From the NCBI GenBank assembly GCA_965235115.1, contig OZ249436.1, forward strand, positions 13,394,001-13,458,000: a DNA stretch of 64,000 nucleotides, given 5' to 3'. The position numbers and the translations under genes are program-made. This document shows positions 15,593 to 62,618 of the stretch, one piece after another; position 1 is the stretch's first letter, and every line of letters begins with the position of its first letter. The stretch comes from Laetmonice hystrix (lineage: Eukaryota). The notes beneath the pieces are model-generated. The model saw nothing but the letters and a program-made list of their open reading frames with translations, was not told the DNA's origin and did not search any database.

Positions 15593-18500
15593 ATGGCAGG
15601 TGTCGGAGCCTCCCGAGGTGAGTGGCGATATGTAACAAATGACACGGGAGCACGAGAGATGGACTGGACGGTCTTGACTTGAGTGACCAGTTTATTTTTT
15701 AACTAAGCATGCCACATTCTTGGGGTTGTACAAGTAGAGCAGATTACGTTTCCTACATAATCACGAGGAACACCGTACATGTACAGTCTAGGGTTGAGTG
15801 TGGCGGATTTCCTGCATACATATTGAGTCAGTTGGAGTGGACGGTTCAGTCTGACTCGGGGCTGCTTGATGTCAGTTTGAGGCTAGAATCAGGTCAGTGG
15901 GCTAACCTGCCCTAGCTAGAAAACTAGCTGAGTGAGTGTGTGTACAACTACAGGACATAATACATGATGAATAACTTAAGTTAAGGGTGAATATAGATAG
16001 ATCTATGAATGTGACTGAGTGAAGTACTATATCTTGTGCATTATTAATTTACACATTAGATAACTAGTTAGTATTAGGCTATAGCAACTTCTAGTTTTAC
16101 TTTTCTAAAGATTGATACCAAACTTGAAACTAGGTCGTTGCTATAGACTTCAGTATGTAGCTAGCCCCAGTAGTGGTATGGTAGCCAGGTTAGCCATGGG
16201 ATGATGGGGTGATGGAGATGAGATCCATGGAAAGTTCTGTCTACACAGACAAACTTGATAGGCCCACGAGTCCGGGAAACAGGGAAAAGTCCGGAATTTT
16301 TATATTGGGGCCTCCCGGGCCGGGAAGAGTCCAGGAATTTGATAAATAGGTGCTCAAATCCCGGAAAAGTCTGAGAATTTGACCAACAGTACAGATTCGT
16401 CAATATCCCATGCTAAGAAAAAATGGAAGGAGACCTGAACATGATCATGGAAAAAGTCATAAAAGTCCGGGAAAAGTCCAGGAATTTAGGAAAGTTTATA
16501 GCGTCGGAACCATGGGCCTATTGATCAATGGTAGATGATAGGTGCATATGAGGGGCATTGTATTTGCCAATGTATTTCCAGATCAGAGCAAATGTGGTGA
16601 CATGGCGGCCATTTTTACCGCCCCCCCCCCCCAAATAACATAGTATTTTGGCCCATATCTTGAAAAAGGTGCAAGATAACACCAGGGGCGGATCTAGGGT
16701 CTATATTCAGGGGGGTCCAGCATAAAAAGGGCAAATCAAGGGGGGGGGGTCCGTTGTAAAAACAAAAGGCATTTTGGTTATAAAAAATTAAATTTGGCAA
16801 ATTTGAGGAGGGGTCCTGACGTCGCCGACCCCCCCCCCCCCCCCCCCCCCTTCCTGGATCCGCCACTGAACACAATAGTTACCGGTAATTATTGACCAAT
16901 AGGAAGTCATGCAGTTTCATTTGGTGCCATTTTCCATGACCTTGAGCCACCTTGAAAGGTCAATCAAAGTCATGCATATTTTTAATGGCTGCCTGTACCT
17001 CCAAACCACTTAAAGATAACAACATCTAATCTTGCATGAAACATTATTACCAGGGACAGTCTAAGGAGGACACAGGTCAAACACCATTAAAAATGGCTGC
17101 TTGACCAGTAGCCATCGTGTTTCCTCCTGGGTCTTGCCCAAAAAAATCGCGTGTGTAAATAAACGAGTGCGTACTACTATACACGATAATTTATGGTACC
17201 GTAGTCATTCAATTTCAAATGGGAAGAGTGTTTAGGAGACATTTGAAATCGGTGAGGTTGACTGGCATAGATCTATGAGCTGTTGATTTGGATGACAGTT
17301 GTCATTCTTACCACAGGGCTATCGTACCCCAAGTTTCACTATGGGCTACTCTTGCTCAAAACAATGGACAGACAACCTATGTCAGAGACAATCCTTATCT
17401 CTAGTTTAAATTGTGTACCTTTGATTTACACCCAGAAAGATTATATGTTCATTATAGACATTTACCAACCATGTTGAGGTGCATTAAGGATTTAACCACC
17501 GTTCTCAGATGTTCAGTTTGTATTCATTGTTTGCTACCAGCATCTTAAGTTAACAAACAATATAATCTCTTGGGTGACATATGTTCTCCATTGATGGTTT
17601 TCCCCAGCTTTCGTTTGGGAGGTTGTTTTATTAATGAAGGCAGTACAGTCATAGGGGCAGAGTCGCTCATCACAGGGAACCCGTAATACAGGTGTTTTCT
17701 CACCTATTGTTTCCCACCTCTGTGAAGCAGCTCACTAGTGCCAGGATGTCGGCCTCAGTAATCACTGCTCATTAGACTGTCTGCCAGTGCCAACTTACTT
17801 GTCTTTAACAACAATATACAATCCCCAAAGTGGCCTGCCCTGTGATGGTTTAGCCAATCAGGAGCCAGCATTTTTATGTTGTATATCATTGGTCAGTTTG
17901 ACAATGGTTTTCTCTATATATACTCATGTTATAACTTTGTACAAAAGACTGGGAAAGTGAACTGGAATAAACTTCATATAGTTGACCAGCTCAACCTCGT
18001 CCTTCTGCTGTACACGCAGTCTTCTGGAATGTCGTAGGAACCCTCCCTACGATAATTGGTGGAGAACCCGGGTAGTTAGCTCTTTTTAGCTGCTAACAGT
18101 CCCTATATGTATTAGCTCCCAGAAGACACAGCCTGCCTGAAGACAACCATGGACGGATTTCTCCCACAACCTGTTCTGGCATTTTTACATGATGCCAAGA
18201 ATCTTGGAGTGTCGCTAAGCTGGTCCATCTCCAGCTCACAGGATAAGAAGTCCATAGTTCTGGAGTGGAATACCCATCCAGACACAGATAAGTCCATTTG
18301 TGTGTCATCGACCTCTGGTCACAAATCTCCAAGCAGACGTCGCCGTGATGCTCAGAGATACCAGGCATGGAAAAACAAGCAGAAGTCTGTGGAACAAGCA
18401 CCCAGCAGCCGAGAGGAGGAGAGCAAGGGACCAGGCAAGCCAGTCCACCATCCTCAGGGGCAGAGATCAGCGGCTTTGCAGCAGAAACGTCACAAGAAAT

Positions 18501-21500
18501 GCAAGTCAACTGCCATGCTCTCTACCCCACAACAGAATCAACATCCTCCTCCAGTGAGTGCCGTTTCGCTCGACCATGGACCATCCAGGTCAAACACATC
18601 AACCCAGACAGACAGGCAAGTGACCATCTCTTGTGAGCTGCAAACTGCCCCTCCCATTGCCCAGTCTATAGGTGTGCAAGCACTTTGCCCTGTGCCATCC
18701 GAGACCAAGAGTTGTCAGAGTGAGGCAGTGAGCAGATCTGACTCTGCTACTCAGACTTGGACAATCAGGGGTGACCAGAGTACCCAGACTGTGGGAAATG
18801 GCCCCCAGAAGACAAAGCAATTGTTGGATCCCATGTGTCTAGAATCTAGTGAGCTGGAGTTCCCAGATCAACACTTCCTTGATTCCCTGGTCAGAAATAG
18901 AAGTGATCCACGGTCACTTCCCATACTGCTTCAAGCTGGACAGAGAAGTATACCCGTGTGTGATAAGAGCCTCACAAGGAAATTGTCTTATAGACAAGAG
19001 ATCTATGAGAGCCATGTGTTACTCTCTGAACCCATTGATTACGATATCACACATATCAAAGACTGTTTTGGATTTCTTGAACGTGACGAGGCATTTTATC
19101 TTCTCACAAAGTATAGAGGGCTGCATTACCTTATACCAGATCAAGGACGTTACTCAGACTTTGAACAGTTGGACCATGCTGGATCCCTCTGTGTGACACT
19201 TTTAATTTATGATTATAGAAGACGGAGGTATATCCAACCAGAACCTCGATATAATAACCTTGTTCAAGTTTAACATGACTGTCAGGAGATGACAATCACA
19301 TCTGTATCCTGACATTTGGTATTTTTCATAGCAGATATCTTCTACATGATATCCAGTCATGAACAATTATTTTTATTTTTCTTCGAGATTGGATGCTCCA
19401 ATCTCAGTTGAGCGAGGGGGATATATCGTACCCCAAGTTTCACTATGGGCTACTCTTGCTCAAAACAATGGACCGACAACCTATGTCAGAGACAATCCTT
19501 ATCTCTAGTTTAAATTGTGTACCTTTGATTTACACCCAGAAAGATTATATGTTCATTATAGACATTTACCAACCATGTTGAGGTGCATTAAGGATTTAAC
19601 CACCGTTCTCAGAGGTTCAGTTTGTATTCATTGTTTGCTACCAGCATCTTAAGTTAACAAACAATATAATCTCTTGGGTGACATATGTTCTCCATTGATG
19701 GTTTTCCCCAGCTTTCGTTTGGGAGGTTGTTTTATTAATGAAGGCAGTACAGTCATAGGGGCAGAGTCGCTCATCACAGGGAACCCGTAATACAGGTGTT
19801 TTCTCACCTATTGTTTCCCACCTCTGTGAAGCAGCTCACTAGTGCCATGGTGTCGGCCTCAGTAATCACTGCTCATTAGACTGTCTGCCAGTGCCAACTT
19901 ACTTGTCTTTAACAACAATATACAATCCCCAAAGTGGCCTGCCCTGTGATGGTTTAGCCAATCAGGAGCCAGCATTTTTATGTTGTATATCATTGGTCAG
20001 TTTGACAATGGTTTTCTCTATATATACTCATGTTATAACTTTGTACAAAAGACTGGGAAAGTGAACTGGAATAAACTTCATATAGTTGACCAGCTCAACC
20101 TCGTCCTTCTGCTGTACACGCAGTCTTCTGGAATGTCGTAGGAACCCTCCCTACGATAGGGCAGTAGTGTTGACTTTCTCTAGTCTGACCTCAGGGCTAC
20201 TGAATTCTCCAGTCAGGCTTGCAGTGGCTATATCAAAGGCTTGTGTCCAAAGTGCACCACTGCCTACCCTTACTGATACAGGCCACAGGGAGTTTAGAAA
20301 TAAAAATCTTAAGTTAAAGTAAATGTGGTGTTCTTAAGTAGTTACTATACAATACAAAAAGACAACAGGGATGGGAAAAACCATTTTGTGCAGAGTATAC
20401 AAGTATGTACATTGGTACTGGTAGTACTAAATTTTACTGAAGCTGGGGCTTGTGGACAAAGTTGGGCGTATTCTGAATCAAGTGCTACTTAGTCCATGGC
20501 TACCAGTCGCAGAACGTCAACATCACTCTATAAGGCAACACGAGGAACCTTGTTTTCAGAGAACAACACAGATACCACAATATTTATAAAAGAGACAGGT
20601 TCACTTGAGAAGGTAGTCATGACTTTGACGTCCGAGGTTGGTTTTTCAGGTCAGTGACAGCACTTCGGAATGATCTAACTCTAGGCATGAGGGGCAGGGG
20701 TGAGTTACCTGTACTAGTTTATAGGGCCAGTGTTATCATCTTTGGAGTGATTTTTACTCAGTTGTGCTGGTTTAAATGAGAAGGCAAGTGTTAGCCACCT
20801 CATGTAGAATTTTCTGTTGCCAGGCTGTTCTTTGTGGACCAGACCCTGGATGCATAGTTTGGTGACCGTGACCTTGACCCTCATAACATCCAGGGGCATG
20901 GGTAGCCATGTATACATTAAATACTTTATAGCGAGAACATAGTCTGCTTAGTGGCTGCCCCAACTCTGCATGGTCAGTCATTGGTATGGGTTCCTTAATG
21001 TTTTGGTCAGTCACATGCGTGAAGACCCAGTGGATCAGGAATGTAACTTGAAAGTGTTAATAGTTAACTCCAGTCTAAGTGGGATTTATGAAGGCAGTGG
21101 AAATTTGTGTCTGGCCTGGCTGCCAGCCTTTGAAGCTCATATACTAGTGAACTAAGTCTGACTGGTGTCTGCGGTATTGCACATTTCATAACCGAATGAT
21201 TAATTTGAGCTTTCTATGACTTGTAAAGACAAGGCGGTTTTATTAATGACATGTGCTATGCATTATTACTAAATCATTATGGGTACTGAAATCAGGTAGC
21301 AATCATAGCAGTGCCAGATCTTGAAAGGTTTCAAAGGGTCATATATGTACCTGGTTGGCATTGCAATTTGCGACAGAATCGGAGCAGTTGGCAACTCCAA
21401 TGAGAAAACTTCTTGAGTACTACCGAAATAAGTTTTTTTTAATAGATCTACGTTGGAGATTTGTGACTGAGCACGATTCATTTCCTTGCAAAGTATGGGG

Positions 21501-30500: not shown

Positions 30501-32552
30501 TAGATGCTGATTAATTTTAGCATTGTTTTTCCAGCCCTCCCCGAAACTTGGACTCCAAGACAACAATTACTATAGACGGTAGAGAGTTTGAAGTGGATGC
30601 TGCTGATTTAGAAAGTATGGGTACCCTAGGACGTGGTGCTTACGGTGTTGTGGAGAAGATGAGGCATAGACAAAGCAACACAATCATGGCTGTCAAGCGG
30701 ATAACGTGTACCGTAAACTCGAGGGAACAACATAGATTGTTGATGGATCTTGATGTGTCGATGCGGTCATCGTCATGCTCCTACACAGTCCAGTTCTATG
30801 GAGCTCTATTCAGAGAGGTACATATTTATGTAGTTGTCGCAAGCATTTCATTGTATCGCTTTATCAAAGTTGTGACCATTTGTATGTGCGTTGTCTGCTT
30901 TGACTTGTCTATCTAGTCTTTTCTTCTTTTCCAAATAACAAAAGCTGTACTTGTTTCAGGGAGATGTATGGATATGTATGGAAGTCATGGACACCTCTCT
31001 AGATAAATTCTACAAAATTGTATATGAAAACAAGCAACAGATTCCAGAGGAGATCCTAGGAAAAATAACAGTTGCCGTGAGTATCGTTTTCTAAGTAGAA
31101 CTTGATAAGGTAGTTGATTAGAGTACAGAATGTGAATAATGTGCAAATCCCGTCATGTGGCGTGTATAGACACATTTGATAATTTTATTTAACAGGTGGT
31201 CAAGGCGTTACACTACCTCCAGTCCCAGTTACAGGTCATCCATCGTGATGTCAAGCCTTCCAATATTCTCATCTCCAAGGATGGCACAGTAAAAATATGT
31301 GATTTCGGCATCTCAGGCCACTTGGTTGATTCAGTGGCCAAGACCATCGATGCTGGCTGCAAACCCTATATGGCAGTACGTGACTTTTTAATGTATTGAT
31401 GTATGTGCCCCTAAAGACACCAACTCAATGTAAATCTTGGAACGGAAGGTGTTAGAGATATTGTGTCAAACATGTTTTCTTGTTATTAGTTATGTGTGTT
31501 TGTAGAAGCAAATGGATTTCAGTACATACCACTAAATTATTACTTAGGAAAAACAGTAAAATCTTGCTGGTTATGGCGTGATGTTCAGAAATTTTGATTA
31601 TTTTGATTTTATATTTTCCTTTATGATCAAGATATTTTAAATGAAGGCATAAACAGTTGCAACATTGTTGCTTCAGCCTGAGCGCATCAATCCTGAACGA
31701 GGCGGCCAAGGTTATGACATCCGCTCTGATGTTTGGAGTCTTGGCATCTCGCTGGTAAGTCAGGCATAAGTCATTCCCTCTTTAATTTATAGATATCGAT
31801 TAAATGAATAGGTTTACAAATAAATTTAATGGAATAAATATAGAAAATCGTTATACAAGGACTAAGACCGAGCTTGGTTATATCAGTTAATGGGACAGAT
31901 AAGAAGAATAGTGATGGGACATACATGGAATGTGTACAATTTTCAGATTGAGCTTGCCACAGGCCAGTTTCCGTACTCCTCATGGGGAACTCCATTTGAA
32001 CAATTGAAACAAGTTGTCAAAGATGATCCCCCACGCCTGCCAGCATCTCGCTTCTCGCCGGAATTTGATGACTTCATCATCCAGTGGTAGGTCAAGCAGT
32101 CAAGATAATCTGTGTACCCCATTGTTAATAACACTACAGGATGGGTTCGTAGTTTGTTGTTATTTTAGTTTGGCACAGCATCAGTGATATTTCTGTTGAC
32201 AGTTGCTAAGATAAACAAGTTTTTGCCTTGTGATGTATCCTGCTGTCTGAAGTTCACACTGGGATGAATGTACCCGGTATAGCTATATTGAATGGCATAG
32301 AAAGCACAAATGGAGCGCCAGTCTTCAGATAAAATATTTGTCCCCAATATCACAGCTGCGGTTGAACCAGACTGATCTTACTTGTTCATCCATTTATATT
32401 TCAGCTTGAGGAAAGACTGCAGCATGCGGCCCAACTATGTGCAACTACTTGAACACCCGTTCGTGCGAAATTCTGAGGAGAAGACAGTGGACATGGCTGC
32501 TTATGTTACAGAAATATTGGACAATTACGCAGACAAATCTCTCGCCGCATAG
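15593..32552 (+). CDS. MAP2K6: Dual-specificity MAP kinase kinase MKK3/MKK6 (p38 activator), about 342 aa
   Basis: Confident exons: 30164-30221, 30535-30817, 30960-31076, 31196-31375, 31677-31754, 31947-32086, 32405-32552, all GT-AG and phase-consistent. Motifs: KKKGPKIQL docking site, [26 protein letters not shown], activation loop DSVAKT, GCKPYMAPERI. The 5' end is less certain: candidate phase-1 first exons 15593-15617 (MAGVGASR), 20687-20699 (MRGR) and 26611-26749, plus an optional 21-nt exon 29811-29831. Confidence 0.95.
17320..20158 (+). mobile_element. Non-autonomous LTR retroelement, 2839 bp
   Basis: LTRs 17320-18054 and 19424-20158 (735 bp each, about 4 mismatches seen by eye). Termini TATCGTA...TACGATA. 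GGGC TSD at 17316-17319 and 20159-20162. PBS TGGTGGAGAACCCGGGTA at 18057-18074. Purine-rich tract just before the 3' LTR. CCAAT, TATATA and AATAAA (17966-17971) in each LTR. Confidence 0.95.
18149..19273 (+). CDS. 374-aa uncharacterised protein, sole cargo of the LTR element
   Basis: Uninterrupted intronless ORF with good ATG context (accATGg), filling most of the internal region. No recognisable CCHC knuckle, protease, YxDD or integrase motif. Confidence 0.8.
   Translation: MDGFLPQPVLAFLHDAKNLGVSLSWSISSSQDKKSIVLEWNTHPDTDKSICVSSTSGHKSPSRRRRDAQRYQAWKNKQKSVEQAPSSREEESKGPGKPVHHPQGQRSAALQQKRHKKCKSTAMLSTPQQNQHPPPVSAVSLDHGPSRSNTSTQTDRQVTISCELQTAPPIAQSIGVQALCPVPSETKSCQSEAVSRSDSATQTWTIRGDQSTQTVGNGPQKTKQLLDPMCLESSELEFPDQHFLDSLVRNRSDPRSLPILLQAGQRSIPVCDKSLTRKLSYRQEIYESHVLLSEPIDYDITHIKDCFGFLERDEAFYLLTKYRGLHYLIPDQGRYSDFEQLDHAGSLCVTLLIYDYRRRRYIQPEPRYNNLVQV
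22731..22896. mobile_element. Partial copy of MITE family B
   Basis: Shares ggtttgaccactacgctgtcgaaaatttctggtgagaac with 45648-45954 and, in reverse, with 51925-52250. Confidence 0.75.
30426..30583 (+). repeat. Perfect 79-bp tandem duplication spanning an MKK3/6 splice acceptor
   Basis: 30426-30504 is identical to 30505-30583. Confidence 0.95.
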
Positions 32553-37590: not shown

Positions 37591-48756
<11,166 letters not shown>

Positions 48757-48899
48757 TTTCTGCAACAGTAAAACGTTATTATGCAAATATCAATATATGA
48801 GGACGACAAATGGAACTGAATCATAAAATCGACAAGAGGAGCTGCTGGATAAAATAATAAATTACCATTTCATCCAATGTTACGAATCTTCCGATTTCT

Positions 48900-48960
48900 C
48901 TCAATATGGCGGCCGGGTCGCGTGTGTGTTCGCGTCAGATCAAAATCTCGCGAGCTTTTG
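48900..48960 (-). promoter_or_regulatory. U2AF2 promoter region: YY1-type CAATATGGCGGC and TCTCGCGAG palindrome
   Basis: CpG-rich patch with both motifs, immediately upstream of the donor at 48865. Confidence 0.6.
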
Positions 48961-50211
48961 ACATATTGCATCTTTTTTATTATATCTTATAAACGGAAAA
49001 TAAACGAACATGTTTTTCAAATTCCTATTTAATAACTTGTCATTCAATATGAAAAAAGAGAAAAATTACCATTGAACAAAAAAGGAAAGTTTTTTTCTTC
49101 AACCTTGGGAAGCTACAAAATGAGAGACCAGCTGGTCCCTGGAAGAGATTCAGACAATTTTCAAGAAACAATAAAACAATACTGCACTCTACAATCCATG
49201 CCTAAATTTAAAGGAATATAACTGCACGTTCTGTTAAAAGACCTTTTAAAACATTACACAGAGGTAATTTAAGCCTATCTTCTTCTTCAGATATCGTAAT
49301 TTCGGTTTCAATGTAATTTGGTTTTTCTAATACACCGGTTTCTAACCTCACACATACATCTGCTAAAAAAGTAGACCTAAGTAGCCACAAGTTTGAGGAG
49401 AACGTCTCTAATTTACTACAGTCCACTAAAGATTTCTATGGCATTACCCTTCTAATTTCTATCTATATTTCTAATTTCTATTGATTATTAGGCCTATAGC
49501 GCTAACAATTATATTCCTGCTTTTCCCTTGTTTTGGAGGCAATCCATCCATCCATCCGGCTAAGTAAGTTCACATGTAGACTCTATGTTTATTTAATTAC
49601 TTTGCAGGCCCATTTGGGGATAACGAGGCTGAGTCTAGTACAGTAGTAGCGAGCTTATTTAATAGACATTACTTTATTTGACCGGCTGATTAAAAAACAA
49701 GGTTGATTGAAGTATTTATTCTGACCAGCAGATGCCAGATTATGGCATTGGGGGGGGGGGGGGGGGGGGCTGCTGTGTGTCACTATTCACAGTCACTCTG
49801 AGTCAGTGGAGACTGTACTGCTGGACTAGGCCTACTGTAGTGTATAAGTAGTAGACTAAGTAGTACTACTATTGGTACTAGTATAGCCAAAGAATTCTGC
49901 TCTGTGCTAGTACTAGTACTACTACTACTACTACTAGGCCTAGTACGTATCACTATATTATATAATCACCAGTGTCGACACCACTATCACTCACTGACTA
50001 TCAGTGACAGTGTAGACTGTAGGCTACTCACTTACTCAAGTTAATACTGTTGACGTGTTGTTACTGTTATGTTACTTACGACTAGTGACCACAGTGTTAG
50101 CCTGGCTAACTTTGGAAGTTTGGTAAATACCACCTATTTTGACAGGATTTTATTTGATAAAAATTGACTAATTACCGACACGAAACAATATTATGTTTGG
50201 GTTAGAGTTGA

Positions 50212-50705
50212 GGTTAGGCCTAGGGCTAGTCTTAAGCCACCCTGACACTTGCACGATTTTTGTCTCCGCAATGCCATGCAATGCGTTGTGGCAAGGTGGT
50301 ACGCAGCGTGAAGCCCTGTTTGCACCCGGTTCGCGCACTGTACTTAGTTACGGACTGTCTACGCAATGCGCTGCCAAAAATTGGCACGCATTGACATGCA
50401 ATGGCACGACTTGTTTATGCATAGGTTAAGTATTGTTCGCGCATTGTTCCGCAATGTCACGCTGTCTTCACACATTGTCACGCACCGTCAGCAGTGTTCA
50501 CGCCGAGTTGGCACAGTGTTCATGTATGGTTCATGCAAGTGGCACGCACATGGCACGAACGTTGATGCCAAATTTGTTAAACATTTTGAAATTCTCTCTA
50601 CAACATGCCATGCACCCCCACACCCTTCACACTCTCCTCACGCTCATTCCCAAAGACTTTAATCATTGGCATGCCGAAGTGCGTGGCATTGCGGGAACAA
50701 AAACA
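50212..50705. mobile_element. MITE-like element with partial terminal inverted repeats
   Basis: ttttgtctccgcaatgcca near the left end versus tggcattgcgggaacaaaa near the right end; GCAC/GCAT-rich interior. Confidence 0.5.
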
Positions 50706-51924
50706 AAAAGTTTAATCTCAAATTGGTTAATTAATTCCAAAACCACTAGTATTAGTAAATTAGTAAAAGGTGCCAAATAGATAATCCGGTCAAAATAAGG
50801 CAATTACACATCCCCAAAAGAATTCTAACCACTGTCAGGAATAGAAATTGGCACCTCCCAATTTTTTCGTTTGTGTCCAGACCCTTTTTTCGAGCAACGA
50901 GCGGCCTCTAGTGGGGAAAAAGGTTCTGGTGATTGAGACCAGGTGGGGGATGTCGTTGTGCTACACCCCTTGACACCCCTCATGTTTAAGCTGTGCATTG
51001 ATATAGGCCTATAATGGGCATGAGGTTGCCTCCTCTGCATACAAGTAGAACCACACTCTCCAACGACGGCGGCCTACTGACTCTTCACTCTGCCACCAGG
51101 TCCCGCACTACTTCTGTGTAAGGATCAAGTTCCTGACTAATTCTGATCATTTACAGCATTTATTTGCCTCAAATCTTACATCTTAAATCTTACATTTCTA
51201 GTTTTGTTAAATGCAGATCTTTTATTTCAATTGACTTAATTTTCTTTTATCGGTGTTAAATGAACTGGCACTATATGTCAGCCAGAATGACAAGTGATGA
51301 GGCAGCCAGTGCTAGTGCCATAAGAGGCCCGTACAAATGAGGTCAAGCATACGCAGTAGGAACTAGTAGTAAGGAAGAAATTCACAGATTCCTCCTCATG
51401 AGTATGCCTAAGTATTAAAGCAGTCGTGTGGAGATGAAATTTAAGCTGTTAACCATCTTTGACCTAGATCTCCAAAAGGTCAAAGGTCAGAGGTCAAATT
51501 CAGGTAAATGATGATTAATGCCTAAGTGACTAATATAAAACTATCATGGAGATTGCTTCTACTGGTCCAGAAATTCAAGAAATGAGCCCTCCTTTGAGAA
51601 ACTTTAACACGTCATAAGTCAGTGACGTGACGTCATATGATAAAGTCAGTCAATAGCTGGTAATTTTAGTGGATGATGAATGTTCATGACAATATCTCCA
51701 GGGATAACCGAGATACAGCCATAGTCTTACTACAACAATAATCAGAAGAAGACGAATAGTGTAGACGAAACCCAGTAACTTCAAAATCCCTTTTCCCCTC
51801 TTTTTTTTTTTTGGGGGGGGGGGGGATAATTAGGGTACTAGTCTTGCAACCTAGGCCTACATCCCCTAACAATACTGAGTAAAACATATCGATCAATCTG
51901 AACAATATGCAATTAAATACTAGT

Positions 51925-52250
51925 CAGGGTTCTCGCCAGAAATTTTTGACAGCGTAGTGGTCAAACCAAGCGCAGAGCCCTGGTTAGGAGTATGGGAGGG
52001 GCGACGCCCCCCCCCCAGTTCGGGTAATTTAGGCTATATTAGTGGTAAATACAAACAAATATGGCCGCCCTACATATGAGTACGATTTCGACATGTTCGA
52101 ATGACATTTTACCAGTATTCCTGTGGGTTCTGTTGAATTTAGACAATGCTTTACCGCTACGCTGTTCAAGAGACAACGTAACGGCAGCATAATTTCCCTG
52201 ATAGACAGCGTAGCGGCCCGCTACGCTGAAAATGGCTGGTGAGAACCCTG
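51925..52250. mobile_element. Complete MITE family B copy
   Basis: TIR CAGGGTTCTCGCCAG...CTGGTGAGAACCCTG, flanked on both sides by CTAGT. Confidence 0.85.
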
Positions 52251-52837
52251 CTAGTAATGTATAACTTGATCAGTTGTTATTATGTAGACATTCGCTTGCA
52301 CTACAAGACATTTGAGAGCCCACAAATCTGTAAAGACAATTAGAACTTCCAATTTGTTAGACTATTATAAGAGTACTGCATGGTTCAAAGCTGAGTAGGG
52401 CCTACAGTACAATCATATATATTCCTACTGTATTTAAGACGTTAGATCTAGGAACAGGGGATTTTCTTCAACCTCTGTGGAACAGGAATTTACGGGATAA
52501 CATAATGGTAGCTGCAGAATTATGTGCTGGAAAAACAAGTTTGTCTCTGCCACCTCGGGGAACAAATTGGGAGAAAAAAAGTTTAGTTTTCTGTTGTGGA
52601 GTGTTGGAAGTAAAAAAAAGTGGAATTTATTCTTCAGTATAGAAATATTGCACCGATAGCCTAGATTTTTATGACCAAAAAAGGGGGGATCCGGACCCCC
52701 CCCCCCCCCCCCCCATTCCATCTGCCCCTGAATAGGTAGTGTATATTTAGCCGGCAACGGTCGGGTAAACATCATGTAGGCCTAGCCATAGCCCAGCCAG
52801 CCGAGGGTCAAACGACTGTTGCACGGCTCATGCAGGG

Positions 52838-52934
52838 ACGTCGCCCCCTAGCGGGAGAACAGTGAAACGGAGCATTCGCATGCGCAGTAACGCTCAACTA
52901 ACTTCCGCTTCCGGGCGCTGACATCAACATGGCG
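52838..52934 (+). promoter_or_regulatory. Housekeeping-type promoter motif cluster: CTCF-like, NRF1-like (GCATGCGCA), tandem ETS (ACTTCCGCTTCCGG), YY1-like (CAACATGGCG)
   Basis: All motifs are visible in a CpG-rich 100-bp stretch ending at ATG 52929. Confidence 0.6.
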
Positions 52935-55378
52935 TCGTCCTGCATACTGTTTCTCGGACAACAATTTAGCAGTTACAACGAGATTAAAGATGCCATATCG
53001 AAGTTTCAAGAAGAGCAGCATGTGACATTTTGGAGGCGAGATTCACGGACGATAGAGAGGGCCCAAAAGATTGGCATCCGGTGTGTTCTTAACAATGATT
53101 TAGTGTACCATGATCTTCTGTATGCGTGTGTGAAAGGCGGCCGAAAGTACACAAGCAAAAGCGCAGGACAACGCCCAAATCAGCGGTAAGTTTTCAAATT
53201 TGTCACCGGTTACACAGAGTTCGCAGCGACTTGAAAAGTGCTTGAGTTTTCAGGCCTGGCTTGAAAAGTACTTGAATTTTGAGAGGGTCTTGAAAAAAGA
53301 ATTATAACCTGGCTTGAAAAGTGGTTGAATTCCTGTATTTTTATTTTATTTTAGCTTGATTTTTTTTTGGGGGGGGGGGGAGCAGTAACGAAGTCAGGGC
53401 TACTCCAACAAGTTAAGCCGGTTGCACATATATACCGACTACTTGACCCGGTTCAGATATCACAACCGACGACCGATATCACAACTGACGTCAAAATTTG
53501 ATAGTGATAGAAATGATAAAAGCTGTCGTTTTAGCCGGCTGAATATACATTCCACTACTAAACTAGCCGTTCTCACACACGGCCGGTCGCGATCTGGTAT
53601 CCGACCTGGTTGCACATATCCCAGTCACGACCCGAACAGCTGACTCGGTCGGGCAAAGTCTGACATGTCACATTGTCGGACTTTGCTTGACCGCCCGGTC
53701 CTGCCACCCAGTCGGGTCAGAATGTATTGCACATAATTATATATATAACGTTACCATTAACTTCTCATACCGGTGTCGCGCACTCAGATTTCTGTTGGTC
53801 TCAGAACTCTGGGGGCATGGTTTCCTATTGTTTATATGCTTTAATCTGACTAAATGAGCACCTCTGGTCGTCTGCTACCTGATGGACGGTGGAATTTTCT
53901 TCCAAACAAGAATAAACGACAGTCTTGATAGGCAAATTGTTGACCAAATGTCGCTGAGGAGATAAGACTAAGAGTTATTATCTGTGACTCAACTGAGACC
54001 TGATAATTCGGATAGTTGAACTAGCACATACAGCTATGAAGCTAACCTTCCGGAGATCAGAGACCACTGAGATCTGAGACAGCGACACCGGCACTCAATT
54101 TTTTCTGGGCACATCCTGATAAAGCCATGTCAAATGTCTGTAACAGCTACATGCTTTCATGTTCCCACTGTAACAAGCAGACGCTCCCATGTTTGGACTC
54201 TTAAAGTCCAACAGACATCCAAATTTACATGAAATTTAGTGCCAGATCCTGATGATACATGTCATTTGTTGTTGTTTAACTTAAAGGAGCGGTTATTGTA
54301 CAAGAATATGAACTGTGTGTAAGCCATTTTAAAGACCAATTCCCCTAGTGACGTCATCAGGGGCAATGGTAAAGAATAGGCAGGAGTGAGACTGTGATGA
54401 GGCGCGAGATTCGAGTTTTCAATATTTTTCTAAATTGAGAGGACTTTTCAGAAAACCTATCAGGGATACGGCTACAACTCAAAGTGATCTATCTAGATCA
54501 GTAAAGTTACCTATAAATGTGATGTCAGTTGCACTTTAAGAAAGTAAAGCACAGAATTGGCTTTGGGTCAAAACCTGGAAAATAAACTTCTCTAAAATTA
54601 TCCTTATAGGACCTTCCGAGATGGCTGTAAATCTTGTGTTCGATTTCGACAAAAGGGTGACAAGTTGGAGGTGGTGAAATTGGACATGAATCATAACCAC
54701 CCGGTGGATGAGGTAAGTAGGTCAAAGATTTAGAAAATAATATTAGCACAACATATTTCATTTTTTGCAGTGATAACGTCATGATATGGCAAAGATACTG
54801 GACAGAAAAAATGAGCATTTAATGCATGATGTGGACAAATGGGAGGTGAATAAATTCAAATGGAAAGGGTTTAAGCTAGGGGAATGTGAAAGTGGGCTAC
54901 TTCAAGGGGGATACTGGGCTGTTACTTCAAGGGGATACTAAACTTCTTGAAGGGGATGCCGATACTTTTTAAAAGGAAGATTTAGACAGAATTCCCAACC
55001 TTTCCAAATTTAGCGGAAATTTTCCGATCTTTACTCCTTTTCTGCCTTACCCTCTTAATTTTTCACAAATCTGCTGGATTTCTTTTGGTTTACAGCTGAT
55101 TTATCAAATCTGTAAAGGCATCATGTTATAAATATAGATAAATATAGATGTATATGATAAATTCCACTATTGTCTGTTTCCGTTCTGAAGTGCAACCTCA
55201 TATATTTCATATTTCCAGTTATCAGCAATAAATTTTCTACCTAAGAGGAAAGTAAGAGGGCGCCCCAAAGGAGCTGAGCTGACGTCTATTAGCCTGCCAA
55301 AGCAAAGAAGGAAAATTGGTGAAATCCGAAAGAAGCTTATTGCTTCTGCAAGGAAAACCCCTTCAGAAAAAGATGAAA
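52929..55378 (+). CDS. Mutator (MULE)/ZSWIM3-type transposase-derived exons: WRKY/FAR1-like zinc DNA-binding domain plus an RGRP AT-hook segment; no catalytic core
   Basis: Exons 52929-53185 (ends phase 2), 54610-54712 (phase 2 to 0) and 55219-55378 (phase 0 to 1) splice in frame: GQQFSSYNE...YACVKGGRKYTSKSAGQRPNQRTFRDGCKSCVRF...LEVVKLDMNHNHPVDE|LSAINFLPKRKVRGRPKGAELTSISLPK. All three donors begin GTAAG. Confidence 0.75.
53770..54091. mobile_element. Intronic MITE
   Basis: CCGGTGTCGC..CTCAGAT..TGGTCTC is mirrored by GAGACCA..ATCTGAG..GCGACACCGG. Confidence 0.7.
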
Positions 55379-56024
55379 GTAAGTAGACAAGCCAGACTGG
55401 CAGAAATAAGCAAAAGTGAAATGGTGGTTTGTTTCTTAACTGTTCACTGTTGAACATGCATGGCTTCTGGTTCACTTTTTGCTAACGCGGCATTGTAAAA
55501 AAAAAGTTCTGAGTGGACAGTGAAGTAATTGGTAATATATTGTGATAATGATTTGTCTTCATCTTTATCATGAAGTATGGAGACAACTCTCAATAGATTT
55601 TGTGTTGTTTCTTTCACCATGGTGCCTATCCTTGCCAGTATTTTACCACACTTTTGAAATGCAGTATGAATAGGAGTGCTAGGTCATTCTCAAGGCAGTC
55701 CAGTGTGTATTGTCAATGCCAACATGGCATCATCAGTTTCAGGTGAAACAGTCTGTAACTGTCAAAGATGGCATGCCTTTATACATACTGCTAAAATATA
55801 TTGCATCCTGAAGGGAAACACACAAACAAATGGAACAGTAGAGATTGAAAAGATTACTGTCTGCTACAGGGGTAGGACAAGGGGCCCGCCCCACGAAAGG
55901 GTTAAGGCAAGGCCTGTTCACAAGCTTGTTAAATGCGGATTTGATTGTTGAATTTTGTATATTCTCGTGTACTGTTGCAGTAATGTGATAAATCATAATG
56001 GAAGATGAAATATTTGACTATATA

Positions 56025-56797
56025 ATTTTTTATATTGTTACAGCTGAAGCCAACGGAGAACCAGTAGTTATAAAGCCAGATTTACCCATCACACCACACT
56101 ACCTTGCACTGCCACCCTTTCCGCAGCCAGTCCATGACAGCTATCATGGGATGATGGACATGACCTACCATCAAATAGCCCAACCTGTGTATGCTGCACC
56201 CTACCATCATCCTCTACATCACAGTTTTGTCAGTGAAGGTAAAATATACTGACCTGTATTCATTATTTATGCTCGGTTTTGTTTGGATAATGATAGAAGT
56301 TCTCCAGATATTCTGTGTACACAACGGCACAATTTTTTTCTCAATGTTTTGTTTTGTTTATGACTGCAAAACACCTGTACTGGGTATAACGTACAAATGT
56401 AGGGATCCTGAAGCTATGGTAACTCTAAATATTGTATATTGTAAAAGATGTGACAGGAGAAAGTTAACTGTTTCAATGACCCTGTTCATCCTCATCTGTA
56501 CCTATCTACATTTTGCAGAGCTTGTCCTGAAGGCACGTGTAGCAAACACTGGAGATTCTGATTTCATTGAGGTGGAGCTTCCTAGGACAAGTCTAACATA
56601 TGAGGCTTTACTCACTACCCTTTGTTGTGAACTTGAAGTTGACAAACGGTTGGTACAAAAGCTACGGAAACTGCCAAACACGGTTCTTCGTAAAGATAAA
56701 GATGTGGAGCGACTGTGGGACCTGCAGGAATTGGAGCTGGTACTTATAGCAGAGCAGTTAGCCAGCAGTCTAGAAATTAAGGGGGACCATCACTGCG
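56025..56797 (+). pseudogene. ANKRD40: Partial duplicate of ANKRD40 exons 3-4 with their intron (either a pseudogene fragment or the 3' half of a chimeric gene)
   Basis: Exon copies 56044-56238 (21-nt in-frame deletion) and 56519 onward are highly similar to 60226-60441 and 61604 onward. A 1-nt deletion near 56746 shifts the frame only after ELELVL. Splice sites are intact. Confidence 0.9.
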
Positions 56798-59197
56798 ACA
56801 AATGGAAAAGTAGAGTGTAGAGATTACTGTCTGCTACAGGGATGACCAATTCCTACTGCGAGTGGTTACGGGCCTGGTTAACAGTTTGTTGAAACTTAAA
56901 CTGCCTGATCCTTAAGAATTGTCCTCAAAGTGAAGAGACCATACTCTCCTACTCGGGCGTCATGGACGATCTCGGTGTCCCTGACCAAAATGGCTCACAT
57001 GTGGCCTCCCGTTTAGGGGGAGGCTCTGTGTTGTCCTCATCACTATCCCCTTTAACACTGATGTCGTGCTCCAGCTCCCTCGTGCATGGAGCTGGTCAGT
57101 GTTACTGGCCGAGGGCACACTATGGGGTCTAGAGTTCATTTTGAAACTCTTCGAAAGGTCCAGAATCTGAGCAAAATTATCACATTGGGCCTTTTGAGAC
57201 TTCCTAATTTCTAGGGCCAAATCAGTCAGGCTGCAGTTCATGGTCTGGAGTGAAGACGCAGTCATTGTTCTACCATGCTGTCCCTTCTGATGATGGAGCT
57301 CAGACTGCCGGAACGGCAGCAATTATTGTCGCTACTGTGGAGCCGTAGCTGATGCCGAAGTGCAGGGCTGCTCCCTCGCTCTGGCTGGATCCAGGGCGTG
57401 TGGCTGTTCCCCTGCTCATGTTATTGTTAACACGCTGGTCATCCCCAATGCCATTATTCCTCTGTGTGACTGCCAGCTGTGATTTCTTGCGCTGCTTGTC
57501 GGTAGCTGTGTCACCTTGGCTAGTATTTATACTGCATTCTCCTGAAACGTCGTTCTGGCCCCTGTTGGCCAGAATTGTGCCAACTAGGTCAAACTTTTGC
57601 AAACCCTTGTTGAGTGTGGAACTTGTAGAGTGCTCGCATATGTAACAAAACAATAAACAATAAAACCAGATATACTACAGAAATGTCAGCGTTATTTTTC
57701 CCTAATCCATTGTTTTTGAAGTCTTTCTTGAAGGAGTCTGTTCATGCTGGTGTAATGACGTACATCTCTCCCTCCATAGCATGAAAGAATTCTTGGTATT
57801 TTGGCATAGTTATTTATGCAATGAAACAAGCTTCTTTTGAAACAAGATTTTTTTTAAGAATGGTGATTCCAGGCCATGGAAAGCCTTGAAATTTGAGCCT
57901 ACCATGATAATTTCCTGAAAAAGCCTGGAATTTCACCCTTTCCATATTTAAAAGGTCACTGGCACTGCTATTTTTTCAAATCCTTCACTTTAGGTGCTAT
58001 GTTTAAGTCATAGAATATAAGACATTATCCAGGTGGATTTCTGCGAATTAATTTCGGTGTTCTTTTGGCTCAGTGAGGTGATTTCCTGCAGCAGACAGTT
58101 CACGATTCATAGTACCAGGTATTTCATGATAAGAAAGTCCTCAAAATAGCTTGAAGTTTTCAACATGGTGTCTGTAGTAGCCTGGAATTCTGTCTGCTCT
58201 ATGGGGTACCCACAATGTTTGGTAGGAAAAATTCTCAGTGTAGGACCTATTTGATATTTCACTTACTCCCTGTTCTGATAATCTTCGTTTACTGACCCTG
58301 AAATACCAAATCTGAATTCTGTTGCTTTCCATTGGTTTAATTCTCGTTCTGTGTGAACTTAGCCCACTTAAGACTTAGCTATCTAGCCCCCCCCCCCCCC
58401 CCCCACTCCAAAGCCAAGGGAACTCCAGGGAATGGGAAATACACACCTATGTTTATAATGTATTTTCTCTTAAGTGTTCCAGATCAGGTATCCATACTAA
58501 ACTAGGCCCAATTAAAACCTATGCCATGACTGCCCCACCCCACCAACATCTTTAAGAGCTCTGTAGTTTTCACATTGTGGGAACAAACGGTCACATGTCT
58601 TGGTCGTCGGCGTATATGTTACTGAGCAGACACCTAAAGATGTCGGTACTCCTTTACAAGAAAGGTAACGGCCCTAATATCAAGCATATGATTTGTAGAT
58701 TGCGTTCAGTCTCTGAAAAAATGGAATTTTTGATTCTAACAAAACATTTCTGAACAGAACCAAAAAAGTACGGTAAAACGGAATTTGGTGGGATTTGGAA
58801 AACAGAATTTGGCAAAAGATAACACAGCAACTGCAGTGCTGTACCATCCTGGAACCATGGCGTAACGTTTGCTTGCTTTGCTGCTTACAGACAGCTAAAA
58901 CCGGGTTACCGGATGGTCTGTACATCTTGCTATGTAATTCCAGCTTAGCGAACTAAAAAAAGGTACCATGACCTCCCCTAGGGCAAGGGCATTATGCACC
59001 TAGTAGGTTACTGCCTGGCAAAGTGTGGTGGATCAGGTACTGAACTTTGCACAAAAGTATACAGGATGGTAAGATTTTTTATTCGCAGTTATATTGAAGC
59101 CATCTAGCAGTAGCAGTATCTGCTATGCAGTTTTCATAATGTAAATTATGCCTGAGACAGGTTTACTAAATAACTGCATTATTTAGATTTTCAGATA

Positions 59198-61905
59198 ATG
59201 GATGGGATAAATCAACAAGAGGAAAAGTTGCGTGAAGCTGCCTGCGTTGGCGATGAAGATACCGTTAGGACACTTATCGAAAAGGGAGTTGATATCGACT
59301 CGCAAAATGCCATGAATGGATGGTAACTTTTCAACCTTTTGTGAATAGATGTGTAATTAAAGCACCGTTGTTATGGTCAGAACTTGAGCTGTAATAATGG
59401 TAGAAACATTGATTCCTGTTGGCTGGATTGTCAAAAAAAGAAGTGAATCTGGAAACTGCAATCTCCACTAAAGGCCCAATATCGACATATATTTTACTTC
59501 TGCTGTGTCATAATTTGGGCTTTTACCCCCTCATTCTAGAGTAAAGTTTGGTACTTTCGAAAATGGTGAACTCTACATTAACGTGTACCTTACCTTTCAA
59601 GTTATGGTGTAATGCAAAAAGATATTATTTATAAACTGCTTTGCAATGCAGGACTGCACTTCACTGGGCTGTAAAACGAGGACATGTGAGCCTTGTGGCC
59701 TGGCTGGTTCAGCATGGTGCCAACCTTGCTGTAACAACATCAAAGGGAGAGACTGCCCTACAATTGGCAGATGACCCCCGCCTACGCACCATACTTGGAG
59801 GTACAGTTAAACTAACTACTTCAAGGATTCCACTTATTAATAGAACTTACACATGTTACATCTTGCCATTTCTAATCTATTATGTTAATTATGAGTTTAA
59901 AAATTGCATGACAAATGACCAAGAAAAAACAAATATTGGAGCCACAAGGACTTAGTTTTCTTGTAAAGACAAATGCCGTGAGGAAAAGGTTGCACAAATT
60001 TTTAGGGATGTTTGCAATGAAATGTAATAGGCCTAGAATGTGCCTGGGAACATGTTTTAAAGATAGATGTATAAGGTATGGTAAAATAAATGATTTTTCT
60101 CTAGCCTGTCATTGAGGGTCTACTGATAAAAAAAACTTGGAAATGTATGCATGCCAGGCATTTTCTTTGTTCTTACGATGTGCATGTTTTTTCACTCCTC
60201 CATATTATTTGTTATATTGTTACAGCTGAAGCCAACGGAGAGCCAGTAGTTACAAAGCCAGATTTACCCATCACACCACACTACCTTGCACAGCCACCCT
60301 TTCCTTATGCAACTTCCTCAAGCCAGAAGCCAGTCCGTGACAACTATCATGGGACGATGGACATGACCTACCATCAATTAGCCCACCCTGTGTATGCTGC
60401 GCCCTACCATCATCCTCCACATCACAGTTTGGTCGATGAAGGTAAAATACTGACCTGTATGCATTATTTATGCTCAGTTCTGTTTGGATAATGATATTCT
60501 GTTTGTACACAATGGCTTCTAATTCACCCTTCGTACAGACGTAGGTATGTCTGTAGACAGCAATTTCTCAGAAGTGTATGCGTCAATTTCTGTGAAAAAT
60601 TACAAAATGATCAGGGACGATCAGAGAATGGAGGATGATGCACATCAAAAAGATTTTTGATAGTATTCAAAATGGCTACTTGGTGGCCATCTTGGATGAG
60701 CAATGGCTCAGCAAAACACTCACAATATCTTTCAAACCTGGTACAGGGAGTAGGCAATAATGATGGCCAATATACATTTTCAGTTCAGATCCAAAATGGT
60801 AAGATGGTAGCCATATTTGTTTTTTGAGCCCCCCCCCCCCCCCATGATACTGTTTTGGCTCATATTTTAAAAAACGTGAAAGTTAATGGCATAGGTAGGA
60901 AGTATATATGAACTTTCATTTGGCACCATTTCCATGACCCTAGGTGATCTATTAAGGTAAAACAAGGTCATGCATCTTTTCAGTGGTTCACATCTCCAAA
61001 ATTATGTAAGATAAGCACATAATTACTATTGAACATGGATAGGAAGTCATATATGAAGTTTTATTTGACAGTATTTTCCTTTACCTCAAGTTAAGGTCAA
61101 AGGTTTTTTCAATGGCTTGTATCTCCATAAGTTGAAAATAATATTGAACATGAAAAGGAAGTCATATGAACTTTCATTTGATGTTACATTTGTTGTATTT
61201 TCCATGACCTTGGCTGATCTGGGTCAAACAAGGTCATGCATATTTCCAATGGCTCATATCTCCAAAATTATTTAGGAAGCACATAATTACTATTGAACAT
61301 GAATAAGAATATATGACGTTTCATTTGACAATATTTTCTTTGACCTTTCTTGACCTTGAAAGATCAGTTGAAGTCATGCAACATTTCTTCAAATTCAAGA
61401 CCCCATAGCCCTTGGTGGGGCTATAAGTTTCACAACCTTGTTTCTTAACATTTCGTCTTATGACTGCAAAACACCTGTACTGGGTATGACTTACAAATGT
61501 AGGGATCCTGAAGCTATGGTAACTCTAAATAGATATGACAGGAGAAAATTAACTGTTTCAATGACCCTGTTCATCATCATCTGTACCTATCTACATTTTG
61601 CAGAGCTTGTCCTGAAGGCACGTGTAGCAAACACCGGAGATTCTGATTTCATTGAGGTGGAGCTTCCTAGGACAAGTCTAACATATGAGGCTTTACTCAC
61701 CACCCTTTGTCGTGAACTTGAAGTTGACAAACGGTTGGTACAAAAGCTACGGAAACTGCCAGACACGGTTCTTCGTAAAGATAAAGATGTGAAGCGACTC
61801 TGTGACCTGCAGGAATTGGAGCTGGTACTTACTAGCAGAGCAGTTAGCCAGCAGTCTAGAAATTATGGGGGACCATCACCGCGACATATTGATGTTGTGT
61901 ACTAA
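59198..61905 (+). CDS. ANKRD40: Ankyrin repeat domain-containing protein 40, 263 aa
   Basis: Exons 59198-59322, 59652-59800, 60226-60441, 61604-61905 are in frame. EEKLREAACVGD...DSQNAMNGWTALHWAVKRGH...TSKGE; P.YL..PPFPY; ELVLKARVAN...DFIEVEL...LTYEALL...KLRKLPDTVLRKDKDV.RL.DLQELELVL. Confidence 0.93.
60515..61450. mobile_element. Intronic insertion with about 120-130-bp internal subrepeats rich in TGACCT/AAGGTCA
   Basis: Absent from the duplicate intron (56239-56518). Repeated aggaagtcatat..tttcatttg..ttccatgacc..aaggtcatgca units. Related sequence at about 16890-17120. Confidence 0.75.
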
Positions 61906-62618
61906 TGATCTAGATTTTTATGACGTAAGTTAAACCTAAGTTATTTTTTGTTATGTAATGATTCTGTAATTAAATACAATGTACAACAAAATGTACTATA
62001 GTAAATTTATTATAGACTAAGAATTTTTGCCAACAAAAAAATGCTTCATCATAGGGCTTGATGAAAGTAATCAGTGACAAACTTGAATATGCAGAGGTAT
62101 ACTGGTACTAAGGAAGTACTTTCCACCAGAGAAAATGAAGTATCAGTACTGATCAAGACTGAAGGCAAGGTTTTTAATTTTATCAGGTGTAAAAGGTTCT
62201 TATTTTAAAAAACAGGTAAGAAGAGAGTGGGTAAAAAACCAACCAATCGAGTAAGACGTGAGATGGTTTGGAATTTTTAATGGGCTTATTTAGGTGGTCT
62301 AAATCTTCCAATTTGTTAACTATCTCATTTAAAAAGGTTGTTACGATCCTTGCCTTAGTCGAACTACATGCTGCCTTTTTATTACTTCAAAGCAAATATA
62401 GAATATAAATAACACAGCAAGCACTCTTCCCGAGCTACTAGTCAACAAAGGCTGTGTTGAATATTTAATGTATTAATTAAACTCTAAAGAAATTTTTCTC
62501 TGCCTTGCAACCAATTCTTATTTCCACATTCCGTGCCTAATAAGACCACAAGTAAATACAGGAGTGCCTTTTAATTGAGGTATGTATACATAGAACGTCT
62601 GAAATACCAGTGCCTCGA

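Follow-up and report, generated by a model that had tools for sequence, protein, structure and literature searches.

The genome of Laetmonice hystrix (assembly GCA_965235115.1) contains, in a stretch of 64,000 nucleotides (nt) on contig OZ249436.1 (positions 13,394,001 to 13,458,000 of the forward strand), what is probably a real and young chimeric transcription unit. The whole stretch is called the window here, and positions are counted from its first letter. The unit lies on the + strand between about 52.9 and 57.68 kb and combines the DNA-binding domain and basic linker of a Mutator-like (MULE) transposase with a duplicated C-terminal part of the neighbouring ANKRD40 gene. The transposase-derived and the host-derived domains are encoded on separate exons, which together form one open frame. 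The data show the layout of the unit, the source of each half and its single-copy status, as well as contigs compatible with splicing of exons 1-2-3 and 4-5 and with an end at a poly(A) site. We infer the joint between exons 3 and 4, the use of the ATG at 52929 for translation and any role of the product.

A five-exon gene model behind a promoter-like region

The gene model (52929-56820) consists of five exons on the + strand that sum to 1017 nt and encode 338 amino acid residues, with no internal stop and a terminal TAG (56818-56820). Each of the four introns begins with GT and ends with AG, and the exon phases match. Three of the donors read GTAAGT and one reads GTAAA, and a pyrimidine-rich run precedes each acceptor. 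This model had been proposed in a preliminary description of the sequence and was reproduced when the exons were spliced and translated. At the place where the two halves meet, the exon 3 donor (AAA followed by GTAAGT) and the copied exon 4 acceptor (a T-rich run, then CAG) are both in phase 1 and near consensus, so that the 338-residue product is expected on splicing. An optional exon at 55743-55871 had also been put forward; it is 129 nt long, has AG and GT borders, is open and stays in frame.

Around the start codon, the observed/expected ratio of CpG is 1.19 (52800-52999) compared to 0.53 in the whole window. The promoter-like motif cluster that had been noted here was found again, with two ETS-like cores and one NRF1-like site at 52838-52928, as judged by their consensus motifs.

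The first half retains the DNA-binding domain of a transposase

Protein searches were run exon by exon. Exon 1 matched the Pfam family ZSWIM3_N (PF21599) with an E value of 3.8e-10 and 40.7 bits, where the cut-off is 27.8 bits. Exon 2 matched FAR1 (PF03101) with an E value of 4.4e-4 and 21.3 bits, below the cut-off of 28.1 bits. A profile-free HMMER search for relatives of the DNA-binding domain, which covered 1.84 billion representative proteins, gave 598 matches to exon 1 at E<=1e-3. When relatives were scanned against Pfam, ZSWIM3_N was found in 18 of 18, and seven of the 18 also had the ZSWIM1-3 RNaseH-like/MULE core; the family is therefore assigned to the animal Mutator-like transposases. 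In an alignment with 16 relatives, the residues conserved in the family, including the Cys and His-x-His positions, were kept in the gene model. The domain had been described as a MULE-type DNA-binding domain with a possible ZSWIM3-N/FAR1/WRKY-like fold, and both the ZSWIM3_N score and the conserved ligand positions bear this out.

The start of exon 3 aligns with an 'LPK-RR-L' stretch that follows the DNA-binding domain in the relatives. Further on, exon 3 has an RGRP core with flanking K and R residues that looks AT-hook-like by eye, whereas no Pfam family was matched by exon 3 at E<=1. The AT-hook of the preliminary description is thus kept as a putative, motif-level call only.

The catalytic part of the transposase was searched for with the MULE (PF10551), RNaseH-like (PF21056) and SWIM (PF04434) families. 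None of the 80 open reading frames (ORFs) of at least 45 residues between 50172 and 59356, drawn from 152 ORFs listed for 44045-59356, was matched, nor was any of the 128 ORFs of at least 75 residues in the remainder of the window. When 15 relatives were compared to the whole window by tblastn, exon 1 was matched by all 15 and exon 2 by seven, and nothing past exon 2 was found save three chance-level matches elsewhere (E 0.2-0.9). The C-x-C stretch at 55743-55871 was recognised as SWIM by no search. As judged from the sequence, the catalytic core and the SWIM finger are gone and the DNA-binding domain and the basic linker alone are retained. This agrees with the earlier claim that the DDE/SWIM core is absent. 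The further claim that decayed transposase-like sequence follows 55378 was not upheld, since neither the ORF scans nor tblastn detected anything transposase-like there.

Instead of the RNaseH-like/MULE core, two of the scanned relatives, P0110 and P0135, have a BEN or a short-chain dehydrogenase domain together with ZSWIM3_N. Of the 150 ZSWIM3_N relatives listed, 121 have fewer than 200 residues. DNA-binding-only or re-fused forms of ZSWIM3_N may be common, or the short relatives may be fragmentary gene calls. Two other relatives, the ORF-style calls P0102 and P0103, stop at the same 'RPNQR' as the end of exon 1, which suggests an intron position common to the transposase family.

The DNA-binding exons are unique in the genome

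When the exon 1 protein was compared to the 627-Mb genome, it found itself and only one relic. The relic (L010, G000:C21:17139569-17139643) lies on another contig, comprises about 25 codons with 76% identity to the end of exon 1 and has two stops. The PF21599 profile gave one match, the present locus, from 111 candidates scored, and the RNaseH-like profile matched 12 other places in the genome. Terminal inverted repeats were not found, the sole inverted repeats being poly-G/poly-C tracts. Intron 1 contains a short high-copy repeat at 53210-53296, with at least 39 other copies that are 92-95% identical and lie on many contigs, and a further high-depth repeat at about 54124-54514.

Because the DNA-binding exons are unique in the genome, the locus is not an active transposon. 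The intact frame across three exons, the loss of the family elsewhere and the later repeats in the introns suggest that exons 1-3 are a domesticated gene; an unconstrained old relic is not expected to stay intact across three exons. The product is unlikely to repress the transposon family from which it derives, since apart from the 25-codon relic no other copy of the domain is detectable.

The second half is a partial duplicate of ANKRD40

The parent ANKRD40 gene lies on the same strand, 3.4 kb downstream of the copy. Its coding exons are at about 59198-59323 and 59635-59835 (ankyrin), 60226-60441 (linker) and 61604-61905 (last exon), and the named proteins closest to it are gastropod ANKRD40s with 60-67% identity. 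The ANKRD40-like sequence in the chimeric unit had been described as a duplicate of the C-terminal domain, and the alignment to exons and introns of the parent confirmed this. In blastn, 56020-56295 matched 60202-60496 with 85.9% identity and 56358-56806 matched 61458-61892 with 92.9% identity. Mismatches between copy and parent amount to 7.2% in the linker exon, 5.5% and 3.4% in the introns and 3.1% in the last exon up to the frameshift. Since intron sequence is shared by the copy and the parent, the duplication occurred at the DNA level. The copy begins 24 bp before exon 3 of the parent and Pfam matches to ankyrin are confined to the parent (59174-59952), so the ankyrin repeats are missing from the chimera, as had been stated. 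Intron 3 of the parent is about 960 bp longer than that of the copy. The additional sequence (60496-61458 of the parent) is full of high-copy repeats, with a depth of 11,000-41,000 at 60496-61203 in the DNA sequencing runs described below. These repeats were either inserted after the duplication or lost by the copy.

Two deletions distinguish the copy, and both were located by alignment where the preliminary description had placed them in kind. An in-frame deletion of 21 bp at 56122/56123 removes the Y of a conserved PPFPY motif. A deletion of 1 bp at 56746/56747, the sole frameshift, lies directly past the conserved core, and the last 24 residues are replaced. The core itself is well preserved: 71 of 75 residues (about 95%) are identical to the neighbouring ANKRD40, and in an alignment of 25 sequences all 25 invariant columns are kept. 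The four amino acid changes in the core all fall in variable columns (chance about 0.09).

A search with the ANKRD40 C-terminal part gave 101 matches at E<=1e-3, all of which have PF27687; this family was read from the annotation of the matches. Among longer proteins, the exon 5 search found one close match, P0001, which is 84% identical to the copy and 97% identical to the parent and is thus parent-like. No orthologue of the copy was seen in this search, which was limited to ORF-style calls of at least 175 residues.

The fold of the copied core was predicted with AlphaFold2 for the exon 5 product, with 34 homologues. The predicted local distance difference test score (pLDDT) was 83-89 for residues 1-70 and below 50 for residues 81-99. 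The model has the order beta-beta-alpha-beta-beta with the last strand at residues 69-75, and the new tail is disordered; the predicted beta-grasp is therefore complete ahead of the frameshift. With Foldseek, the model matched SUMO-like, ISG15 and ubiquitin chains, three of them at E<=1e-3 and with template modelling (TM) scores of up to 0.79 by target length. At the fold level, these predictions support a ubiquitin-like C-terminal core of ANKRD40, as had been anticipated.

Transcript evidence

Four sequencing runs (X1-X4) cover the locus. All come from one sample and one study, possibly the assembly's own sample, and none is recorded as RNA. Contigs of X1-X3 lie over introns and exons alike, whereas those of X4 (58 million letters) lie over exon-like pieces only. 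X4 therefore behaves like RNA, its library type not being on record.

Record 26 of X4 (385 nt, depth 45.1) has its letters 1-253 on 52932-53184. The bin depths of 13 in exon 2 and 3.82 at the start of exon 3 correspond to 102 and 30 letters of this record, and 253, 102 and 30 add up to 385. Record 29 (519 nt, depth 39.4) has its letters 97-519 on 56517-56939 with no mismatch to the copy, and the bin depth of 10.7 in exon 4 corresponds to 96 letters of it at the end of this exon. Records 30 (56942-57445) and 31 (57456-57681) extend to 22-29 nt beyond the AATAAA signals. Towards the 5' end, an X4 contig with a depth of 6.9 covers 52769-52918, and the next begins at 52932 with the depth of 45.1. 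From this arithmetic on record lengths and bin depths, we read that exons 1-2-3 and exons 4-5 are spliced as modelled and that the RNA ends at a poly(A) site in non-ANKRD40 sequence.

The end of record 26 falls exactly 30 letters (k-1) inside exon 3 and looks like a branch of the assembly graph rather than an end of the RNA. The gaps between contigs accordingly say little, as contigs are clearly missing there. The stretches free of X4 contigs, at 55249-55378, 55540-55893 (which includes the optional exon) and 56044-56140, are holes in the cover and do not indicate absence. X4 also has no cover at the last exon of the parent (61558-61911), from which nothing is concluded. For the fusion that had been predicted, the RNA check thus gave a divided result: the contigs fit the splicing of exons 1-2-3 and 4-5, and among the contigs and joints listed none spans 55378-56044.

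It is very improbable that the ANKRD40 copy is an artefact of the assembly, that is, a mis-join or a collapsed or duplicated error. The short distance between copy and parent, 3.4 kb, would fit such an error. However, contigs of the DNA runs bridge the copy-specific joints (54486-56101, 56080-56383 and 56750-57065), so that X1-X3 connect both ends of the copy and its short intron, the latter (56080-56383) with no mismatch. The copy and the parent also differ at 3-7% of sites and by several indels, and the RNA-like contig fits the copy without a mismatch and does not fit the parent. The weight of this test is limited in that a single sample gave all the runs that bridge the copy, and the assembly itself may have been built from them. 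A parent-type contig that was placed on the copy in X1 and X2 (T>C at 56550, C inserted behind 56746) was read as wrongly placed there; we do not take it for an allele that lacks the frameshift.

The poly-C/poly-G tracts at 52680-52735, 49742-49775 and 58385-58416 lie within a recurring element and give false 'joints' of about 5.7 kb in short-read contigs. Such joints, from 52715 to 58386 and similar, stem from the poly-C repeats and do not represent deletions.

A possible route of birth

The inserted block (55872-56797) is flanked on both sides by a direct repeat of 46 bp, and at its left end, between the repeat and the copy, lies a filler for which no source was found in the window. Both flanks of the ANKRD40 copy, 55379-56019 and 56807-57800, are single-copy in the genome. 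The block resembles a duplication made by local repair or template switching rather than one mediated by a transposon. When it is removed, 55743-55871 and the sequence from 56842 onward form an open frame of 68 codons to a TAA, in phase with exon 3 (chance about 0.04, calculated post hoc). We suspect from this frame that the insertion split an earlier terminal exon, the front of which is possibly the optional exon at 55743-55871; this is an idea and not a result.

The proposed course would be as follows. A single-copy MULE-derived gene with its own CpG-rich promoter would have kept the ZSWIM3_N/FAR1 (WRKY-GCM1-type) domain and the basic linker. Then about 0.9 kb of DNA would have been duplicated locally, so that the last two ANKRD40 exons came to lie behind exon 3, and the copy would have brought its own acceptor, donor and intron. 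The predicted product would contain the DNA-binding domain, an AT-hook-like stretch of basic residues resembling a nuclear localisation signal, a linker rich in P, H and Y and the ubiquitin-like core with a tail of 24 residues. Such a protein might act in the nucleus by binding DNA and taking the ubiquitin-like module of ANKRD40 there. Alternatively, it might compete with ANKRD40 for the partners of this module.

In its full form, this proposal reverses the usual capture of a transposase and sees a gene soon after its birth. It states that an already domesticated, catalytically dead Mutator-type gene captured the ubiquitin-like module of ANKRD40 by a 0.9-kb duplication that split its old terminal exon, and that the locus mainly yields the fused mRNA, from which a functional ubiquitin-like protein tethered to DNA is made. 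We hold it as a tentative possibility.

Weighing the chimeric unit

Several points weigh against a fused gene. No contig shown in X4 spans the exon 3-4 joint (55378/56044), and the joints within exons 1-2-3 and 4-5 were deduced from lengths and depths and not read directly, from a run of unrecorded library type and with all runs taken from one sample. Record 29 most likely starts at 56141, right after the AG at 56139-56140; this start could mark an internal acceptor, whose frame would not fit that of exon 3, or the 5' end of an RNA that begins within exon 4. The high-depth 5' contig begins at 52932, three nucleotides past the A of the ATG, so that transcription could mainly begin at the start codon or downstream of it. 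Compatible phases would be met by chance in one case in three. Two word-index searches, for longer proteins and for proteins of near length, found no close orthologue of exon 1, and the best of the 598 profile-free matches to exon 1 is only 53% identical. Two conserved residues are missing from the copy, namely the Y of PPFPY and the nearly invariant Tyr at the C-terminus. Compared with the parent, the copy has 17 non-synonymous and 5 synonymous changes, which gives a ratio of non-synonymous to synonymous rates (dN/dS) of 1.04; exon 4 has 13 and 2 such changes and exon 5 has 4 and 3, and none of these values differs from neutral (P 0.25-0.6).

Some of these points would also be expected if the locus produced two unrelated transcripts and no fusion. 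Exons 1-3 would then be a truncated transposase-derived gene that ends elsewhere or uses other exons such as 55743-55871, and the ANKRD40 fragment would be a transcribed pseudogene whose RNA begins within exon 4 or shortly ahead of it and ends at the poly(A) site further downstream. The unseen exon 3-4 joint, the start of record 29 within exon 4, most likely at 56141, and the state of the copy, with its frameshift, the deletion in a conserved motif and a dN/dS of about 1, all fit such an arrangement, as does the 68-codon frame of 55743-55871 and 56842 onward, which could be the older terminal exon. On the other hand, the exon 3 donor and the copied acceptor are strong and are the next usable pair on the strand. 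The sequence before exon 4 is AT-rich and intron-like and has no promoter-like feature, and the end of record 26, 30 letters (k-1) into exon 3, resembles a graph branch and not an RNA end. Taken together, we regard two separate transcripts as rather unlikely.

A young chimeric unit is the preferred reading. The acquired part is too young or too free for visible constraint and so far evolves like neutral sequence. The comparison to ANKRD40 by dN/dS that bears on the preliminary description yielded 1.04 over both exons, and purifying selection was not detected. It is therefore possible that the gene is newly born and neutral and not an established regulator.

An established and selected transcription regulator or transposon repressor, in which the fusion protein is already functional, is unlikely. 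The intact DNA-binding domain in a single-copy gene whose family is gone from the genome would agree with it. A stop codon in the last exon does not expose an mRNA to nonsense-mediated decay, and here the stop codon is in the last exon. All four amino acid changes of the core fall in variable columns. Repeated joining of DNA-binding domains from transposases to domains of the host is outlined for other animals (10.1101/2020.05.07.082677). Against this stand a dN/dS of 1.04 that is not different from neutral and a frameshift that removes the tail with the nearly invariant terminal Tyr. The genome has no target transposon copies to repress, the word-index searches gave no orthologue by which conservation could be gauged, and ANKRD40 itself is without an established function. 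The preliminary description had suggested a nascent transcription regulator or transposon repressor. Its basis in the domains, the duplication, the frame and the promoter-like region holds; both roles stay suggestions, and a repressor of the own family became unlikely.

Other features of the window

The coordinates of the features are listed in Table 1. Elsewhere in the window, 18116-19270 (+) is an open frame of 385 residues with no Pfam match at E<=1e-4. An exon-like ORF at 30521-30913 (+) matches a protein kinase domain at its beginning (Pkinase, E 2.1e-8), which places another gene upstream in the window. The region 2017-2510 is of low complexity, is open in several frames on both strands and has weak sub-threshold matches to 'Lamprin'; it is probably a Gly-rich repeat.

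Table 1. Features of the chimeric unit and of its ANKRD40 parent, with positions in the window
Feature	Position	Strand	Evidence or content
Promoter-like CpG-rich region	52838-52928	+	Two ETS-like cores (52901-52914), NRF1-like site (52876-52885), CpG observed/expected ratio
Exon 1: start codon, with the ZSWIM3_N/FAR1-type zinc-finger DNA-binding domain up to two thirds of its length	52929-53185	+	Pfam, relatives, X4 record 26
Exon 2: remaining third of the DNA-binding domain, with the ligand positions Cys and His-x-His	54610-54712	+	FAR1 match, tblastn, alignment
Exon 3: basic linker, RGRP (AT-hook-like) core, K/R runs	55219-55378	+	Alignment with 16 relatives
Optional in-frame exon candidate, 129 nt	55743-55871	+	AG/GT borders, open frame
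Direct repeat, 46 bp, left copy	55826-55871	+	89% identical to 56798-56841
Filler, 148 bp, left end of the inserted block	55872-56019	+	Single-copy in the genome
ANKRD40 partial duplicate: end of intron 2, exon 3, shortened intron 3, most of the last exon	56020-56806	+	blastn and pairwise alignment
Exon 4: ANKRD40-derived P/H/Y-rich linker	56044-56238	+	Alignment to parent, X4 record 29
Exon 5, coding: ANKRD40 C-terminal core (75 residues), new tail of 24 residues, TAG	56519-56820	+	Alignment, AlphaFold2, Foldseek, X4 record 29
Direct repeat, right copy	56798-56841	+	Brackets the inserted block
3' untranslated region, unique non-ANKRD40 sequence, AATAAA at 57652 and 57659	56821-57681	+	X4 records 29-31
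Parent ANKRD40 gene	59198-61905	+	tblastn with five named ANKRD40 proteins, ankyrin Pfam matches

Meaning and comparison with known systems

Should the exon 3-4 joint not occur in the RNA, the locus would be an ordinary combination of a truncated domesticated gene and, beside it, a transcribed pseudogene fragment. If the joint is true, a chimeric gene is seen here at about 5% divergence from its source, with the parent, the scars of the event (the 46-bp repeat and the 148-bp filler) and possibly the displaced terminal exon still readable. It would extend the transposase fusion genes to an invertebrate, to the Mutator/ZSWIM3_N domain and to a different birth route. A working DNA-tethered ubiquitin-like protein made from it would be a new architecture of a transcription factor, and the gene would also offer a handle on the unstudied C-terminal domain of ANKRD40, which is predicted to be ubiquitin-like. 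ANKRD40 is not known to have an established function, and none of the titles listed in a literature search names the gene. The pair of domains was not met in the sets compared: none of the 101 ANKRD40 matches has a part like exon 1 or exon 2, and none of the 150 listed ZSWIM3_N relatives has a part like exon 4 or exon 5 (E<0.1).

The closest precedent comes from tetrapods, with host-transposase fusion genes like KRABINER, SETMAR and PGBD3-CSB. As outlined in the source, at least 94 independent cases arose in which a transposon inserts in a host gene (10.1101/2020.05.07.082677). Like these genes as they are outlined there, the unit has transposase DNA-binding and host domains on separate exons, a catalytic part that is dispensable or lost and an expected role as a DNA-binding regulator. 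In the outlined tetrapod fusions the transposon is spliced to upstream exons of the host, whereas here the transposase part, which has a promoter of its own, comes first and a duplication set the host exons downstream of it. What the host contributed is not KRAB, SCAN or SET as in the fusions named for tetrapods, but a ubiquitin-like domain of unstudied role. Moreover, the host is a marine invertebrate, the fusion joint is predicted and no selection was detected. Birth by insertion of a transposon in a host gene was not found here; the parent ANKRD40 is intact and separate. The preliminary description had referred to the capture of transposase domains by splicing to host domains. The type of fusion fits this, and the route differs, as the host exons were copied behind a transposase-derived gene.

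ZSWIM1, ZSWIM3 and the plant FAR1 and FHY3 are domesticated Mutator-like transposases (PF21599, PF03101, PF21056) that keep the RNaseH-like/MULE core and the SWIM finger. The present gene shares with them the N-terminal zinc-finger family of the WRKY-GCM1 type and is likewise a single-copy, immobile gene. Unlike them, it has neither the MULE core nor the SWIM finger, and its best relative is 53% identical.

With ANKRD40 and ANKRD40CL, the predicted product has the C-terminal core in common, and ankyrin-less isoforms or paralogues occur among the named matches, e.g. a 'putative ANKRD40 C-terminal-like protein'. It differs from both by its frameshifted tail without the terminal Tyr, by the missing ankyrin repeats and by the transposase DNA-binding domain in front.

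Young chimeric genes are known to arise by partial duplication and exon shuffling, e.g. jingwei of Drosophila, which involved a retrocopy. As in genes of the jingwei type, a partial duplicate would have been recruited here as the exons of another gene, and the unit appears young and lineage-specific, with a relaxed or fast evolution of the acquired part. In contrast to jingwei, the recipient is a transposase-derived gene, and the duplicate is DNA-based and local and not a retrocopy.

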